The translations under genes and the position numbers were made by a program. Source: Patescibacteria group bacterium (GTDB lineage: Bacteria > Patescibacteriota > Dojkabacteria > J137). Taken from it: DNA of 64,000 nucleotides. The stretch lies in assembly GCA_963169855.1 (NCBI GenBank), contig CAUJCN010000002.1, positions 452,885 to 516,884 of the forward strand, in the 5' to 3' direction. Under the pieces are notes generated by a model. That model did no database searches, had not been told where the DNA came from, and was given only the letters and a program-made list of their open reading frames with translations. Positions 38,921 to 47,273 of this stretch are shown piece after piece. How positions within the stretch are numbered: position 1 is the first letter of the stretch; each line of letters begins with the position of its first letter.

Positions 38921-39651
38921 TAGATAGAAAATACTGGACTGAGCAGACGACTGGGTTTCTTCGTACCACTGCATTTATTAACTCCATTCGCGGTGTTATT
39001 GATCAGAATGCTCCCTTGCCAGTTTTCCTGGTTGATGCTGGATGTTCCGAAGGCGTGAGTACAATTGAACTTCGAAGTTTATTCCCGACCTCTCATGTAG
39101 TTTATGGAGTCGATATAAATTTAGAAGCAGATGCTGATTACAGACAGAAGGAAAGAACAGTTCGAGCTTTAGTTAATCAAGGAGAACTGAACTCCGAAGA
39201 TACTAGAATGATTAAATTTTTAGAAAACGATTATTACAAACCAGTATTTAGAAGAAACTCTGTAGATATTTTTTTGATTTTAAATTCAATAAATTACCTT
39301 TATAGATTTCCTCACGATTTTAAAGACAAAATTCCATTTTTAGTACAGTGCCTTGGTAACGCAGCACTTTCTTTAAACCCAAATAAAGGAAGATTAATCT
39401 TAGGGAAGAACGGTAGGGACTCTAAGCCAGGAAATCAATCTCATCTTGATTACACTATTTTAGAAAGAGTAGGTGATGAAATTTCTCTTAAAGGAGATGA
39501 ACAATTTTACGCTGTTGGGGAAGTTCCCTATACAATGAAATTAGATTTTGCAGATGAGATGAATAAAGAGCTTAAATTTCGTATATATGGAGAATCCTAT
39601 TTAAGACGAAAAAGATCGATAGGTGAAATATCGCTGAATGAAGAAGCTTAG
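38917..39651 (+). CDS. Hypothetical protein (244 aa), possibly a SAM-dependent methyltransferase
   Basis: VFLVDAGCSEGVSTIEL resembles methyltransferase motif I. The gene overlaps the hisS stop (ATGA). Confidence 0.3.
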   Translation: MIDRKYWTEQTTGFLRTTAFINSIRGVIDQNAPLPVFLVDAGCSEGVSTIELRSLFPTSHVVYGVDINLEADADYRQKERTVRALVNQGELNSEDTRMIKFLENDYYKPVFRRNSVDIFLILNSINYLYRFPHDFKDKIPFLVQCLGNAALSLNPNKGRLILGKNGRDSKPGNQSHLDYTILERVGDEISLKGDEQFYAVGEVPYTMKLDFADEMNKELKFRIYGESYLRRKRSIGEISLNEEA

Positions 39652-40832
39652 TTTTTACTATAAAATTCGATACACTCTCGAAGTGTTTCAGCGAATTTAA
39701 TAATATCTTCTCTAGAATTATAAACCCCTAAACTAACTCTTACCGTTGCTGGAACTTGTAAAACGTCTCGATGTAAAACTTGAGTACAGTGGTGACCAGC
39801 TCTAACGCAGACTCCGTTATCTCCTAAATACTGAGCAACATCGTGTGGATGAACTTTTTCGTGATAGAAACTTACAACTCCGACTCCATTGTTTGAGTGG
39901 AATATTCTTATATTTTCCAAACTTCTTAATTCCAACATTAAATCAAAAACTAGCTCATCTTCTATTTCCCGGATCATTTCGAATCCTATTTCTTCTACGA
40001 ATTTTATTGCTCTTGCAAGCCCAGAAGCTCCTTCTACATTTGGTGTCCCAGCTTCGAATTTCGATGGAATTTCGTCCCAAATTATTTCGTCTTTTCTGAC
40101 CTCACGAATCATTCCACCTCCAACTTTGAATGGTTCTAATTTTTCTAATAGTGGTTTTTTAACAAACAAAGCTCCAATTCCCATTGGTGAATAAATTTTG
40201 TGACCACTGAAAGCTGCGGCATCAACATCTAAATCTTTCAAATCAACTTTCATATGAGCAACAGATTGAGCAATATCTAAAACAATAATTGCATCTGGAC
40301 AAATCAGTCTTATTTTTTTAATTGGGTGAACAGCTCCCGTAACATTACTAGCGTGACTTAGAGCAATTAGTTTTGGGTTAAAAGCTTTAAGCTTTTCTTC
40401 CCATCCCTCTAAAAGATCACCATTTTCGTCTACTTCTAAATAGTTTACTTTTGAGAAAACTCTTCTCCAGGGAAGTAAATTTGAGTGGTGCTCTAATTCT
40501 GTAATTACACAAACATCTTCAGGGGAAATTACATTGGATCTTAATAATGATTCTGAAAGTAAATTTAATCCTTCAGTTGTTCCGGAAGTAAAAATGATTT
40601 CTTCTTTTTCAACATTAAGAAACCTTGCTACAACTTGCCTTGCACTTTCGTAAGTTTCTGTAGATTCTTCAGCAAGTGGGTAGAGGCCTCGATGCACATT
40701 TGAATTTCGATTTGTATAGTAATTTTGAATTTGATTTAAAACTACATCCGGTTTTTGAGTTGTAGAAGCACTGTCTAAGTAAGCCAAACCTGGCTTAGTC
40801 GCAAACATTGGAAATCGTTCTTTCATATTCAC
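39648..40832 (-). CDS. sufS: Cysteine desulfurase (SufS/NifS, class V aminotransferase)
   Basis: The PLP-lysine region SGHKIYSPMGIGALF and the active-site RAGHHCTQ are present. Length 394 aa. Confidence 0.85.
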   Translation of the reverse strand: MNMKERFPMFATKPGLAYLDSASTTQKPDVVLNQIQNYYTNRNSNVHRGLYPLAEESTETYESARQVVARFLNVEKEEIIFTSGTTEGLNLLSESLLRSNVISPEDVCVITELEHHSNLLPWRRVFSKVNYLEVDENGDLLEGWEEKLKAFNPKLIALSHASNVTGAVHPIKKIRLICPDAIIVLDIAQSVAHMKVDLKDLDVDAAAFSGHKIYSPMGIGALFVKKPLLEKLEPFKVGGGMIREVRKDEIIWDEIPSKFEAGTPNVEGASGLARAIKFVEEIGFEMIREIEDELVFDLMLELRSLENIRIFHSNNGVGVVSFYHEKVHPHDVAQYLGDNGVCVRAGHHCTQVLHRDVLQVPATVRVSLGVYNSREDIIKFAETLRECIEFYSKN

Positions 40833-40854
40833 ATTATAACGTAAATAAATTTAT

Positions 40855-41967
40855 TCATTTAACTTCTGTTACTGCGTTTACTTGTTTGGATTGTGGAGCA
40901 TTACTTTGAATTGCCTGTACAAACCTATTTTCATCTCTTTGTCCAATTAGTTTCACAATATTGTTCATCCCCATGAATTGTTGATAGAAACCCTGCAAAG
41001 TCTTAATCACTTTCAGTTCAGTTTCATTGTTAATAACTTTGCCAATTCCATAAATCTTTAGTTCGTCAGGTGTAATTGGATGTGAATGAGAGTGGTGTTT
41101 TGTTGTAAATTCTTCAACGGCAACGTTAATAAGTTGTTGATCTTTACCCTTCATAGAGAAGTTTTCTAAAGCGTGTTTAATTTGATCTTTAGAGTACCTT
41201 AGTGCCCCTACATAACTACCTAGTAGGTACGGGTCCAAGTTTTCCTCAAACTTCTTTTTTAGTGTTGTTAGCGCCAGTGTGTTAGCTGTAGTTGTCTCAT
41301 CTACTGTTCCGTATGATTGAATGAAGTCTTCAATTGAAGTAGCTGGGATTCTCAACCCTGGATTTGTAGGACTCTGTATAATAGGATCAACCGGTCCTAA
41401 TTCTGATAAACTTGTAAAGTAAATTTCATCTCCGTTTAGAGCTAGTAGCGTCGCAGCACTTTTCGCCATCATCGGTACAATTACTTCATACGTTTCAGCA
41501 TAATGACGAAGAATCGTAGAAAACTTTACTGAAGCCTCTAATATACCTCCTCCACTGTGTAAGAACAAGGTCAATTTTTTGAATTTTTTACCATTGTCCC
41601 CTTTATTAATAGGAATCAGTTTAAACAGCAAATCATCTAAAAAAATACAATCATTTTGATCCAACATGCTAAATGGAGAACCTGGAATAGAAATGTATGA
41701 TATTACATCCCCATAGTAATCTTCCAGTTGAACCACAGCTTCCCTATTACTTATTTCGAAACCTTTAGACAACAACTCAAGATCTTGCTGATAACTATCA
41801 TTTCCTCTATATTCTTCAAAACTTTTTGTCTCGATCTGGTATGTTGAATTACGAGGACTTTGTTCTGCAGATAGTTTACCTTCACGAATCAGTTTTCTAA
41901 TGAAGTGGGGCGTCACTTTAAGACGTTCTGCAGCTTGGGTAACGGAAATAAATTTAGTCTCTTTCAT
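40855..41967 (-). CDS. Fusion of an N-terminal excisionase/MerR-type HTH with a ClpP-fold serine peptidase domain (S49/SDH-like)
   Basis: HTH ISVTQAAERLKVTPHFIRKLIREGKL. The peptidase region LFLHSGGGILEASVKFSTILRHY...MAKSAATLLALNGDEIYFTSLSELGPVDP matches the LHSPGG...SA.T..AL..DEI pattern of the SDH/SppA family. Confidence 0.5.
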   Translation of the reverse strand: MKETKFISVTQAAERLKVTPHFIRKLIREGKLSAEQSPRNSTYQIETKSFEEYRGNDSYQQDLELLSKGFEISNREAVVQLEDYYGDVISYISIPGSPFSMLDQNDCIFLDDLLFKLIPINKGDNGKKFKKLTLFLHSGGGILEASVKFSTILRHYAETYEVIVPMMAKSAATLLALNGDEIYFTSLSELGPVDPIIQSPTNPGLRIPATSIEDFIQSYGTVDETTTANTLALTTLKKKFEENLDPYLLGSYVGALRYSKDQIKHALENFSMKGKDQQLINVAVEEFTTKHHSHSHPITPDELKIYGIGKVINNETELKVIKTLQGFYQQFMGMNNIVKLIGQRDENRFVQAIQSNAPQSKQVNAVTEVK

Positions 41968-41996
41968 GAGTTAATAATTAATAAATATTGTACGCT

Positions 41997-42069
41997 CAGT
42001 TACGAGCAGTTACCATATTCTATCAGAGGCAAAAATTTATGTCAAATTTTAACGTAACTACGCGTAACC
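41997..42069. promoter_or_regulatory. Operator-like array of two GTTAC copies (41999, 42009) and two GTAAC copies (42053, 42064), with 10-11 bp phasing, upstream of the HTH-peptidase gene
   Basis: cagTTACgagcagTTACc ... acGTAACtacgcGTAACc, seen directly in the 104-bp intergenic region. Confidence 0.35.
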
Positions 42070-42071
42070 AA

Positions 42072-44472: not shown

Positions 44473-45018
44473 TTATTTGAGTTTATTGTAGATTTCGAAG
44501 GATAGAGGAGGAACGTTCTCTGGTAGATTTTCCGAAGTGACTAATTCCCAAATCTGTTCACCATCTGAATCCTTCATATCTACAATGTCGAAACTTACAT
44601 CCCCTTCGAAATCTTGGTAAATTCTAGTAACGTAGAATTGATCAATCAAGTTATGCCTCAGTGCTAAATTGTAAATTTCTGCACCTCCTATAAACCATGA
44701 TTCTTCTCCCCATTTATGTTTCATTTCTTCTAAAAGGTGTTTAAGCTGATCTATAGATGAAACTACGAATGTGTTTCTAAAACCTTTCTCTTGAACATAA
44801 TTTTCTAACTTTTCGGGATTTCTTGTCATTACTATATTTGGTCTTCCCGGTAACTCTCTGCCCATTCCGAATAGAGTACTGCTTCCCATAATTACTGGAT
44901 GCCCCATTGTTAAATCCCTAAACTTCTTCATGTCTGCATCAATTCTTGGCCAAGGGAGCTTTCCTTGATTTCCAATTACACCGTTTTGGGCAACAGCCAT
45001 TATTGCATTGAACTTCAT
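44473..45018 (-). CDS. folA: Dihydrofolate reductase
   Basis: AIMAVAQNGVIGNQGKLPW...DLTMGHPVIMGSSTLFGMGRELPGRPNIVMTRN matches the DHFR N-terminal fold. Length 181 aa. Confidence 0.8.
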   Translation of the reverse strand: MKFNAIMAVAQNGVIGNQGKLPWPRIDADMKKFRDLTMGHPVIMGSSTLFGMGRELPGRPNIVMTRNPEKLENYVQEKGFRNTFVVSSIDQLKHLLEEMKHKWGEESWFIGGAEIYNLALRHNLIDQFYVTRIYQDFEGDVSFDIVDMKDSDGEQIWELVTSENLPENVPPLSFEIYNKLK

Positions 45019-46847
45019 ACCTGTGCGATTTGATAAATTTGATTTAGCTCGAATCCTCTTTTTGCATAGTATTCTCGAGTCCCGATACTAGAGATTACCG
45101 CAAGCTTTGAGAAACCTTTTTCTTTCGACATTTCTTTTGCTTTCTCAATCAACTTTGTTCCTAAGCCTAAGTGTTGAGCTTTACCTTCTGACTCTTTCCC
45201 AAGTTCGAGGCTTGGTCCATAAACATGGACTTCTCTGATAATTGCAGAGCCATTTAGTTCCTCTACAACTTCGTTTTGATGATTTTTTGGAATTGATAAT
45301 CTAAGGAATCCAGCGATTTCTTTTTTAAGAGTTACGTATTGAAGAAAGTACTCTGTAGCTACAGTTGTATCGTATTCAACAATATCTAGGCTTAAATCTT
45401 CCAAACCTACCTTTTTCCCTTTGATTTCTCTCGCTCGAATATTTTCGTTTTTTCTTCCTTCTTTTTTAAGTTTGAATTCTACAGCTTCTCTTAGATTTGT
45501 CGTCTTGTTTCCACCTTCAATTTCTGTAGATGGAATATCTCTAATAATTCTTGTAAGTCTACAATACTCAGGAGTGTACTCAATTAAGTTTGAAAGTAAG
45601 TCGATCAATTCTTCAGTCGTATAAGGAGTATAGAAGCCATCTAGAAAATGTTTATACAATTCAGTGTTCTTGATAACTGATGTTGGGTAAATTTTTAGTT
45701 CATCTGGTTTGAAGTCTGTAGAATCAAAAAGTTCTTTGTAAACTTCCAAATCAATTTCTGGAGTTGATTTGTATAAATTTGGCATCATATGACCGTGAAT
45801 TTTAAATCCAGCAGAGCGGAGTAACTTGAAAGCTTCGACTACATCGGACTTTAATTCACCTCTTTTGTTTGCAATGCTTACTTCATCATTTAAAGTTTGA
45901 ATTCCAATTTGAACTTTTGTTGCTCCAAGTTTTCGCATTCTTACCACCTCTTCTTTGTTGATGACTTCAGGACGAGTTTCCAAAACTAAACCTACGCATC
46001 TAGTTTTGCCTGCTGAGTTAATATCATGTTGCTGATATAAAGATTCCCAAGTAACATCTTCTTCTCTTACAATATTTTTCCCAAACAATTCTTTATATTC
46101 TGGAGTTACTATTAACTGGTTGTAAGGCAAATCTCCTTTGAGTGCACGAATCTGTGAATTAATATCTTTTTGAAGTTCAATTTTGATTGGATTATCGATT
46201 GGTTTATCATCTTCGTTTGGGGTGTAGTTGTTTATTCCAAAATCGTTCATGGCTCTGAAACATTCGTGGATGAACCATATTTTGTATTTTTCTGTGTAGA
46301 AAGACCAAGTTCCTCCTAAAATCAAAAGCTCAATTTTTTCTGTTGGGTGTCCTGTATTTCGATAAGCCATCAATCTGTTATAAACTTGCAGATATGGACT
46401 AAATCGGTTGTACATTGCTCTTTGTGCTCCTGGTTCCGAAGCAATGTAGCTTTTTGGCATAGTAACATCGTTTGGGCAGAAAATACATCTTCCTGGGCAA
46501 GCAAAAGGTTTGGTTAATACTGTAACTGTAGTTACGCCAGAAATAGTTCTGGTTGGCTTCATTCTAATCTGGTGAATGATTTCCGCTGCCGAATCTTTAT
46601 CGATTTCGTCGTTTAAAGCTAAGTATTCAAAACCTCTAACAACGTTGTCTTTACTAAAAACTCCTTTCCCATCGCGCGGGAATTTTCTTAAGATCTTTTC
46701 GAACTTTTCGTCATCGATATCTTCTGTTTGTAGAAGAGCGTTAAAAATATTCAAAAGCTCTGGCTTATAATTTTCAGGACTGAATTGGTACATCTGCATG
46801 GGGGTAATTATATAGCAGGAAGGACAAATATTGAATTGTAAAATCAA
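45015..46847 (-). CDS. elp3: Elp3-like radical SAM / GNAT tRNA wobble-uridine modification enzyme (elongator protein 3 homolog)
   Basis: The radical-SAM cluster motif CPGRCIFCPND and a C-terminal GNAT acetyl-CoA motif (Q/R-x-x-G-x-G/A, here HLGLGTKLIEKAKE) are present. An N-terminal extension of about 90 aa is present. The gene overlaps folA by 4 nt. Confidence 0.75.
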   Translation of the reverse strand: MILQFNICPSCYIITPMQMYQFSPENYKPELLNIFNALLQTEDIDDEKFEKILRKFPRDGKGVFSKDNVVRGFEYLALNDEIDKDSAAEIIHQIRMKPTRTISGVTTVTVLTKPFACPGRCIFCPNDVTMPKSYIASEPGAQRAMYNRFSPYLQVYNRLMAYRNTGHPTEKIELLILGGTWSFYTEKYKIWFIHECFRAMNDFGINNYTPNEDDKPIDNPIKIELQKDINSQIRALKGDLPYNQLIVTPEYKELFGKNIVREEDVTWESLYQQHDINSAGKTRCVGLVLETRPEVINKEEVVRMRKLGATKVQIGIQTLNDEVSIANKRGELKSDVVEAFKLLRSAGFKIHGHMMPNLYKSTPEIDLEVYKELFDSTDFKPDELKIYPTSVIKNTELYKHFLDGFYTPYTTEELIDLLSNLIEYTPEYCRLTRIIRDIPSTEIEGGNKTTNLREAVEFKLKKEGRKNENIRAREIKGKKVGLEDLSLDIVEYDTTVATEYFLQYVTLKKEIAGFLRLSIPKNHQNEVVEELNGSAIIREVHVYGPSLELGKESEGKAQHLGLGTKLIEKAKEMSKEKGFSKLAVISSIGTREYYAKRGFELNQIYQIAQV

Positions 46848-46865: not shown

Positions 46866-47273
46866 CTAAAGATGCTTCCATGTAGTTAGGTTGTACTTCT
46901 TCAACATGGCTCCGAATATCCTTGTTAGCTGTTTAGACTCATCCAATAGTTGGTCAATAATCTCTGATTCTTCCGCGGAGTTTTTAATAATAGTTAACCA
47001 CAAAGTGGATTCTTTGGACTCCTTCCTACAAATTTGAATCCTATATACAAAATCATTTTTACTTATACTTTCGTTTGCTTCGATGAAGTTAGCAGCTACT
47101 GAACCCGAACTTCTAATTAGTTGTTTAATATCATCGGCATTTGAAATATAGATTTTTAGAGATTTAATAAAAATTCTTATATTTATTGCAAAGGTTGTAG
47201 TTCTTTCTATGAGATCATAGTTCATTCCAGTATAATAACCTCTAGTAGAACACTGCGCTTTGTAATACAGCAC
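46866..47273 (-). CDS. Four-helix-bundle protein of the 23S rRNA intervening-sequence protein family
   Basis: ERTTTFAINI...QLIRSSGSVAANFIEANESISKNDFVYRIQICRKESKESTLWL matches the family signature (QL.RS..S...NIAEG..R.S.KDF..FL.IA.GS..E...). The true start is probably MNYDLIE. Confidence 0.5.
   Translation of the reverse strand: MLYYKAQCSTRGYYTGMNYDLIERTTTFAINIRIFIKSLKIYISNADDIKQLIRSSGSVAANFIEANESISKNDFVYRIQICRKESKESTLWLTIIKNSAEESEIIDQLLDESKQLTRIFGAMLKKYNLTTWKHL

Follow-up and report, generated by a model that had tools for sequence, protein, structure and literature searches.

Autoregulated repressors that work through a protease are already known, as are proteases of the ClpP fold. LexA, phage CI and UmuD (S24) join a DNA-binding and a serine peptidase domain in one chain and have operators at their own promoter, and their logic is that separating the DNA-binding from the oligomerising domain would derepress. 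CapH+CapP, ImmR+ImmA and DdrO+IrrE consist of a helix-turn-helix (HTH) repressor with a protease as the signal-responsive element; like CapW/BrxR, they represent a conserved regulator upstream of variable immune cargo, a pattern that has been described for CapH/CapP and CapW. The Xis, Apl, BldC and RdfS proteins belong to the PF12728/TIGR01764 HTH family and have operators of direct repeats one turn apart, and winged HTHs of the Xis/Apl/BldC type are known to bind such repeats weakly as monomers and cooperatively in arrays (PMC7498355; PMC5859096). The C proteins of Type II restriction-modification (RM) systems are encoded by autoregulated HTH genes situated directly ahead of, and co-transcribed with, the restriction gene. 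Here we describe a gene which shares features with all of these, found in a stretch of 64,000 nucleotides (the whole stretch analysed, hereafter the window) of contig CAUJCN010000002.1 from a Patescibacteria group bacterium of the Dojkabacteria. It codes for an excisionase-type HTH fused to a ClpP-fold serine protease of the SDH type, and the phased TAGTTACG repeats at its promoter are very probably the operator of this HTH, mediating autoregulation. The HTH-SDH architecture and its context are undescribed in the literature searched, where searches on PF01972, on SDH proteases and on ClpP-like proteases of RM islands turned up nothing relevant.

Read on the strand of the gene, the spacer preceding it has two GTTAC (42068-42064 and 42058-42054) and two GTAAC (42013-42009 and 42003-41999), both pairs with a spacing of exactly 10 bp, as well as a degenerate third repeat (GTACA, 41993-41989) one turn beyond the proximal pair. 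An earlier prediction made from the letters of the window alone had described two GTTAC and two GTAAC pentamers phased at one turn within these 104 bp, and their positions, content and spacing were all confirmed. Together the pairs make up an inverted repeat of 15 nt, GTTACGnnnAGTTAC, whose arms are 40 nt apart; the inverted copy GTAACtgctcGTAAC is located at 42013-41999, 3 bp beyond the -10 element. The 40-nt interval holds a TTGACA-17-TAGAAT promoter with a TG extension, which is the best promoter-like site in the 39.4-45.2 kb region. The exact 15-mer is found nowhere in the window except in these two places. At the window-wide rate of 2.25 GTTAC/GTAAC per kb, 0.23 would be expected per 104 bp (Poisson P(≥4) ~1e-4), and in a sliding scan over the 64 kb no 104-bp stretch other than the spacer reached four pentamers. 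Across the 64 kb the pentamers are generally over-represented (144 observed vs 80 ± 9 in dinucleotide shuffles). This excess may stem from codon usage or from a compositional or methylation-related bias; it does not explain the cluster at 41999-42068.

Orthologs were gathered from protein databases, GTDB genomes and JGI metagenomes. The 33 full-length sequences obtained, with 36-67% identity to the window protein, were aligned (alignment A1), and a second alignment (A2) comprises 22 sequences of the SDH superfamily with identities as low as 19%. In the 100-bp upstream regions of 18 orthologs there are 43 GTTAC/GTAAC pentamers vs 3.0 expected; the corresponding Poisson P (~5e-34) overstates independence, as there is some relatedness among the loci. 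A TTGAC(A) box is present at the equivalent place in 16 of these 18 regions, and nearly all orthologs with a (V/C)TPHY(I/V)RKL helix have the TTGACA box and 2-4 GTAAC/GTTAC words, which are found in the promoter spacer, over the -10 or the start site, just downstream, or abutting the -35. Derived from 49 sites, the extended consensus reads T-A-GTTAC-G/T. Among 14 loci scanned in full, nine have their sole cluster (at least 3 pentamers per 60 bp) at the gene's own promoter and five have no cluster; further operator clusters, which would indicate a regulon, were found neither in the window nor in the orthologous loci. The closest relatives, L048 (67% identity) and L128 (63%), have unrelated neighbours and the same operator layout as the window, with 2-3 phased AGTTACG repeats, 9-10 bp apart, ending 7-9 bp ahead of the -35. 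In L128 an inverted repeat copy follows the -10, while L048 has the upstream direct repeats only. Recognition-helix variants are accompanied by repeat variants: the orthologs with RQL for RKL (L002, L004) have GTAAG/CGTAC motifs instead of the pentamers, a Gracilibacteria clade with a CTPHY helix has additional CGGAAC/GTTCCG, and a clade with the unrelated helix ISYNHLVNN has no pentamers. There is strong support for a joint occurrence of gene and repeats, the latter at the promoter of the former, over phyla-level divergence and in neighbourhoods that are unrelated. The proposal that the array is the protease gene's own operator is strongly supported, both by a cluster which is unique in the 64 kb and by its conservation at the orthologs' own promoters, the lack of which would have refuted the original prediction. 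One ortholog (L078:4992-6065), on a contig of 23% GC, has 16 in-frame TGA codons and is intact under genetic code 25 (TGA = Gly); its upstream region still has GTTAC/GTAAC sites.

The two domains of the protein, whose fusion had been proposed in the original prediction, both score above the Pfam gathering cutoffs: HTH_17 (PF12728) at amino acids (aa) 7-53 with 30.1 bits (cutoff 27), and SDH_protease (PF01972) at aa 130-342 with 50.7 bits (cutoff 31.3), covering positions 92-273 of the 286 in the profile. Among the NCBIfam models, TIGR01764 (“excise”) reaches 27.8 bits, slightly under its cutoff of 28.8, and NF047768 (Clp_like_SDH) 60.3 bits, far from the equivalog cutoff of 250. By these scores the protein is best classed as a distant SDH subfamily member, not as the named equivalog NF047768. 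Residues T19, P20, H21, R24 and L26 of the HTH are invariant or nearly so in A1. The AlphaFold model of the 370-aa protein has a predicted local distance difference test score (pLDDT) of 85 and a predicted template modelling score (pTM) of 0.82. The SDH branch comprises 4232 clusters at 50% identity, in which no characterised member and no structure solved were found by sequence, and the HTH-protease fusion is rare within it, with ~8 full-length clusters. The C-terminal tail of the family is conserved and disordered, reading Q-[VI]-P-T-[RK]-T-[SA]-[LI] in most orthologs (A1 columns 440-466); that of the window protein (last ~12 aa, window 40855-40900) contains KQVNAVTEVK and has a pLDDT <50. 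By analogy with SppA, which binds its own C-terminus, this tail could be a degron or an active-site-docking peptide.

Residues G140, G141, P165, A168, S170, A171, T173, G191, P192, D194 and H294 are invariant across A1 and A2. Ser170 is found at the position of the ClpP nucleophile, within AKSAAT, and the order in the chain, S-D-H, is the one that defines the SDH family. While a Ser-Lys or Ser-His dyad had been considered, the unit is a Ser170-Asp194-His294 triad; an absence of the catalytic residues, which would likewise have refuted the prediction, was not observed, as they are present and invariant in the 33 orthologs and the 22 superfamily members. Superfamily members have L, H, Y or F in place of Lys169, beside Ser170, and a Ser-Lys dyad is ruled out by this lack of conservation. 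Judging from its conserved residues, the protease is probably catalytically competent.

The protein differs from each of the described systems. S24 repressors have a beta-barrel with a Ser-Lys dyad and act on palindromes as dimers, whereas the window protein is ClpP/crotonase-like, with Ser-Asp-His, phased 10-bp repeats and an excisionase-type HTH. The profile search returned no S24 match for it; its fold is ClpP-like, and only the logic may be shared with LexA/CI. The CapH+CapP type involves two proteins with a zinc metallopeptidase, or a WYL sensor, compared to a single chain with a ClpP-fold serine protease here, in which the profile search detected no metallopeptidase domain and no domain recognised as sensing single-stranded DNA. 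The CapH/CapP-like position upstream of immune cargo is seen in loci L046, L055, L043, L038, L005 and L002, but not in the window. Xis, Apl, BldC and RdfS are stand-alone proteins of ~60-90 aa that multimerise on DNA, Apl and BldC being transcriptional regulators, whereas the HTH of the window protein is tethered to a 300-aa protease body which could, by analogy, supply the multimerisation. The likeness to C proteins concerns loci of the L046 and L055 type; C proteins are however small XRE-type dimers, have C-boxes and lack an enzymatic domain, and they are known for Type II and not for Type I systems. As for the proteases, ClpP has the triad order S-H-D and belongs to PF00574, while the window protein has S-D-H and no PF00574 match, so that the fold alone is common to both. 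SppA (S49) and NfeD use a Ser-Lys dyad, which the window protein does not have (TIGR00706, 17 bits vs 155; NfeD1b_N, 20 vs 40). It also differs from ClpP, SppA and NfeD (1510-N) by a long helical insertion carrying the His, by its N-terminal HTH and by having no AAA+ partner or membrane anchor.

About 20 non-redundant loci were compared for their gene content, and around half of these are RM or defence loci. The HTH-SDH protease gene (X in the locus orders) usually comes first, with a short or overlapping junction to a variable cargo. The order in L046 is hsdS, X, hsdR (with a 4-bp overlap between the last two) and GmrSD, and in L055 hsdM...hsdS, X, a 204-aa gene and hsdR; L061 and L085 are further Type I loci containing X. 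An MmeI-like Type IIG enzyme follows X in L043 and adjoins it in L007. The remaining defence-related orders are Type III mod-res, X, Shedu SduA and a PD-(D/E)XK protein (L038); X, ThsB-TIR and caspase (L005); X and an NYN gene (L002); and a Schlafen-like helicase with HNH followed by X (L087). Small unknown proteins are found after X in other ortholog loci. An all-against-all BLAST of the downstream neighbours revealed no conserved partner gene of the fused family. Between hsdS and X, L046 (2440-3570) and L055 (4940-6716) have a spacer of 47-58 bp that holds the promoter together with four GTAAC/GTTAC words. Translation of hsdR is coupled in L046 to that of X itself, and in L055 to that of the gene following X. 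Since the promoter is in this spacer and hsdR is coupled in translation, hsdR would be transcribed from the autoregulated promoter in both loci, which would be a possible instance of a Type I restriction subunit controlled at the level of transcription; X occupies the position of the hsdR promoter in the Type I loci. The suggested defence-island context hence applies to many orthologs, through RM, Shedu, TIR-caspase and NYN loci, and not to the window copy, which has no defence neighbour. No PADLOC-DB v2 model matched the window protein, its neighbours, the relatives without HTH or the partners of these, and two orthologs showed weak similarity to mad1 in the HTH only. A phage origin was considered and rejected: no relatives were found in IMG/VR by pattern and tblastn searches, and GenBank phages and PLSDB plasmids gave only distant, HTH-less “hypothetical” matches (25-45% identity over the aligned stretch).

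A sister clade contains the protease without the HTH (~295-305 aa). With the exception of L080 and L081, its gene is followed within 2-20 bp by one for a 134-177-aa protein with an N-terminal transmembrane helix. These membrane partners resemble one another weakly, and one has a faint MscL-like match. The pair adjoins DNA methylases, HNH, GmrSD, TdeIII endonuclease, an integrase and IS200, and looks like an unrecognised two-gene module of RM islands, made up of a protease and a membrane protein. Because this clade is also located in RM islands, the RM association belongs to the protease and not to the HTH alone. The maintenance of the protease and a membrane partner where the HTH is missing shows that the protease can serve a purpose which does not involve DNA binding.

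The best explanation for the locus as a whole is that of a self-contained, autoregulated cassette, repressed by the bound oligomer and acting as a regulator at the head of a cargo, to which we give only slightly less than an even chance. The near-consensus sigma-70 promoter is bracketed by the TAGTTACG-type repeats one helical turn apart, and according to this explanation several HTHs of one oligomeric protease particle would occupy the distal pair (~-58 to -44) and the proximal array (~-3 to +22). Their cooperative occupancy would trap or occlude the promoter, leading to repression of the gene itself and of the co-transcribed genes downstream. The genomic context suggests that the protease domain is the signal-responsive part: if the HTH were cut from the oligomerising body, or the particle degraded, cooperative binding would be lost and the operon derepressed. 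Such a protein would reproduce the logic of LexA/CI or of CapH+CapP in one polypeptide, with a protease of another fold. Regulation of cargo combined with self-inactivation, which is modelled on these systems, is plausible, although we consider that the chances lie somewhat against it. Repression is argued since the sites lie over the spacer, the -10 and the +1 in most orthologs and since the window has a proximal array; the negative sign is to that extent inferred from site positions. As for the distal array, it could serve to anchor a loop (centre-to-centre distance 55 bp) or it could activate.

Several points weigh against the autoregulated cassette as it is formulated above. In the clade of the window the array is partly or wholly upstream of the -35 (wholly in L048), a position that is also used by activators, so that regulation may be of either sign. 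The self-cleavage, which the original prediction had suggested by analogy with LexA/CI, is putative, and a conserved cleavage motif in the linker could not be demonstrated. That the particle is oligomeric is assumed from analogy with the ClpP/SppA fold. Since the HTH-less clade has retained the protease beside a membrane partner, again within RM islands, the ancestral task of the protease was probably cleavage in trans and not self-cleavage. Three loci (L007, L003 and L049) have no co-directional gene after the protease gene, and in the window there is no defence neighbour and the gene downstream resembles a housekeeping SufS. An extended version of the proposal, that of an immune-operon controller, would have a ring-forming protease sitting on its own promoter and destroying itself upon a phage or DNA-damage cue, or additionally degrading HsdR in Type I loci. 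It would couple transcription control to built-in restriction alleviation in minimal genomes, with the HTH-less protease and its small membrane protein as a related effector system. This version is improbable in our view.

The protease could instead be the payload itself, a potentially toxic or abortive-infection effector directed at phage or host proteins, whose expression is kept low and constant by the HTH and whose neighbours are merely co-resident. Such a stand-alone effector would fit a gene that moves singly with a promoter and operator of its own, has an intact triad and has no conserved partner, and it would also easily explain orphan copies like that of the window; the HTH-less clade, in which the protease is paired in RM islands with a small membrane protein, has a typical protease-plus-effector layout. 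However, many loci couple the gene (by overlap or within 25 bp) to a variable co-directional gene, including hsdR, which is the pattern of a regulator, and no PADLOC or defence-model match was obtained; the effector is a rather unlikely explanation. A controller dedicated to RM systems, combining C-protein-like transcription control of the R subunit with its degradation in the manner of ClpXP, would account for the position of X between hsdS and hsdR in L046 and L055, with hsdR translationally coupled to X or the next gene, for its presence inside the Type I loci L061 and L085 and beside Type IIG (L043, L007) and Type III (L038) enzymes, and for the DNA methylases, TdeIII endonuclease and GmrSD next to the sister clade. 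There is precedent for both activities, as C proteins work via operators at their own promoter, delaying R expression (PMC3874152), and restriction alleviation of EcoKI is a matter of ClpXP proteolysis (PMC11109961). Other orthologs nevertheless precede non-RM cargo (Shedu, TIR-caspase, NYN, unknowns) or nothing, an interaction with HsdR would be conjectural, and the window copy, having no RM genes nearby, would have to be a remnant that outlived its RM system, which makes this controller very unlikely.

The repeats can also be accounted for without a regulator of transcription. HTH_17/TIGR01764 is the excisionase family and phased direct repeats are the signature of recombination directionality factors, so that the HTH might bend DNA at the end of a mobile island, with the repeats as attachment site; large serine recombinases are indeed present in L038, at a distance of 3-4 kb, and in L061, at ~1.6 kb. 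The repeats, though, always coincide with the TTGACA promoter of the gene and not with island borders, a recombinase is missing from the vicinity in most loci, that of the window among them, and the composition of the window is uniform (~35% GC). Apl shows that both roles can coexist, so that a directionality function, highly unlikely as it is, would add to the operator role and not replace it. Lastly, the inverted repeat might act as an RNA hairpin (terminator, processing site or insulator) in transcripts reading through from the GH1-like gene upstream, as the 96-nt region folds at -24.3 kcal/mol, or the pentamers might be there by chance, given their excess in the window. The hairpin was rejected: its z is only -2.5, it has no T-run, and its 40-nt loop contains a full promoter. 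Pairing is not conserved either, the orthologs retaining pentamers and not the inversion (direct repeats only in L048, opposite orientation in L054, L055 and L046), from which it follows that the conserved feature is a DNA word, and no compensatory changes keeping the stem were seen across orthologs. Chance was likewise rejected, the cluster being unique in the 64 kb and those of the orthologs being found only at the gene's own promoter. These last two explanations are barely tenable.

The family looks like an undescribed self-regulating module of defence islands, with an orphan copy in the window. If true, this would be a fourth architecture of immune-operon regulators after CapW/BrxR, CapH+CapP and CapK+CapS. 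It would also give the SDH branch of the ClpP-fold proteases its first functional assignment, and supply a first candidate for a Type I restriction subunit being controlled at the level of transcription. The operator, TAGTTACG with 10-bp phasing, has an unusually clean computational definition, with natural covariants of helix and operator. Read most conservatively, the locus would still be a well-supported case, by sequence comparison, of autoregulation in Patescibacteria, where gene regulation is almost unexplored. The features discussed here are listed in Table 1.

Table 1. Features of the protease locus and its relatives. Positions refer to the window unless a locus is given.
Feature	Position	Strand	Basis or remark
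HTH_17-SDH protease gene, 370 aa	40855-41967	(-)	Open reading frame (ORF) and Pfam matches above gathering cutoffs
Excisionase/Xis-type winged HTH, aa 7-53, recognition helix VTPHFIRKLIRE	41809-41949	(-)	PF12728, TIGR01764
ClpP-fold SDH-type serine protease core, aa 130-342	40942-41580	(-)	PF01972
Ser170 codon, predicted nucleophile (AKSAAT)	41458-41460	(-)	Invariant in A1 and A2
Asp194 codon (GPVDP)	41386-41388	(-)	Invariant in A1 and A2
His294 codon (SHSHPI)	41086-41088	(-)	Invariant in A1 and A2
Intergenic spacer (104 bp) between protease gene and GH1-like gene	41968-42071		ORF list
Sigma-70-type promoter: TTGACA (42045-42040), 17-nt spacer, TG-n-TAGAAT (42022-42017)	42017-42045	(-)	11/12 match
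Distal operator (putative): two direct repeats GTTACGcgtAGTTAC, 10-bp spacing	42054-42068	(-)	Ends 8 bp upstream of -35
Proximal operator (putative): GTAACtgctcGTAACtgagcGTACA, inverted vs distal repeats	41989-42013	(-)	Starts 3 bp past -10, over predicted start site
SufS-family cysteine desulfurase	39648-40832	(-)	Aminotran_5 E 1.7e-117; 22-28 bp downstream of protease gene
GH1-like gene, 628 aa	42072-43958	(-)	Upstream of protease gene, same strand
Unknown gene, 144 aa	43961-44395	(-)	Upstream of GH1-like gene; DinI-like match sub-threshold only
DHFR gene	44473-45018	(-)	Upstream of 144-aa gene
Elp3-like gene (radical SAM + Radical_SAM_C + GNAT), bacterial	45015-46847	(-)	Adjoins DHFR
23S_rRNA_IVP-type four-helix-bundle protein	46866-47273	(-)	Beside Elp3-like gene; Pfam annotation of identical contig L035
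HTH-less protease and membrane-protein pairs	L009:4977-6383, L014:5001-6294, L011:4974-6423, L017:1404-2761		~18 more loci (L010-L016, L057-L076)

The genes around the window copy follow each other on the minus strand in the order Elp3-like, DHFR, 144-aa, GH1-like, spacer, protease and SufS-like. No RM or defence genes are found nearby, the neighbours resembling housekeeping genes, and the window shows no signature of horizontal transfer, its GC content being flat (0.33-0.39). The window copy is an orphan cassette, with the GH1-like gene on one side and the SufS-like gene on the other. The GH1-like and 144-aa genes had been taken for a downstream operon regulated by the protease; they are however both upstream on the same strand, and cannot therefore be cargo of its promoter. 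The SufS-like gene, the sole co-directional gene downstream, is the only possible cargo. As no minus-strand terminator is predicted between the two genes, their co-transcription is possible. The 22-nt gap between them (40833-40854) contains TTATAAT 9 nt ahead of the ATG, and neither gene is preceded by an evident Shine-Dalgarno sequence, which is why the SufS-like gene may have its own promoter or a very short leader, in addition to possible read-through. Its product scores 427 bits with TIGR01979, under the cutoff of 475. The 628-aa protein is an atypical GH1-like one, with a GH1 match limited to two stretches (the better one at aa 113-204; 72 bits overall) and long additional N- and C-terminal regions.

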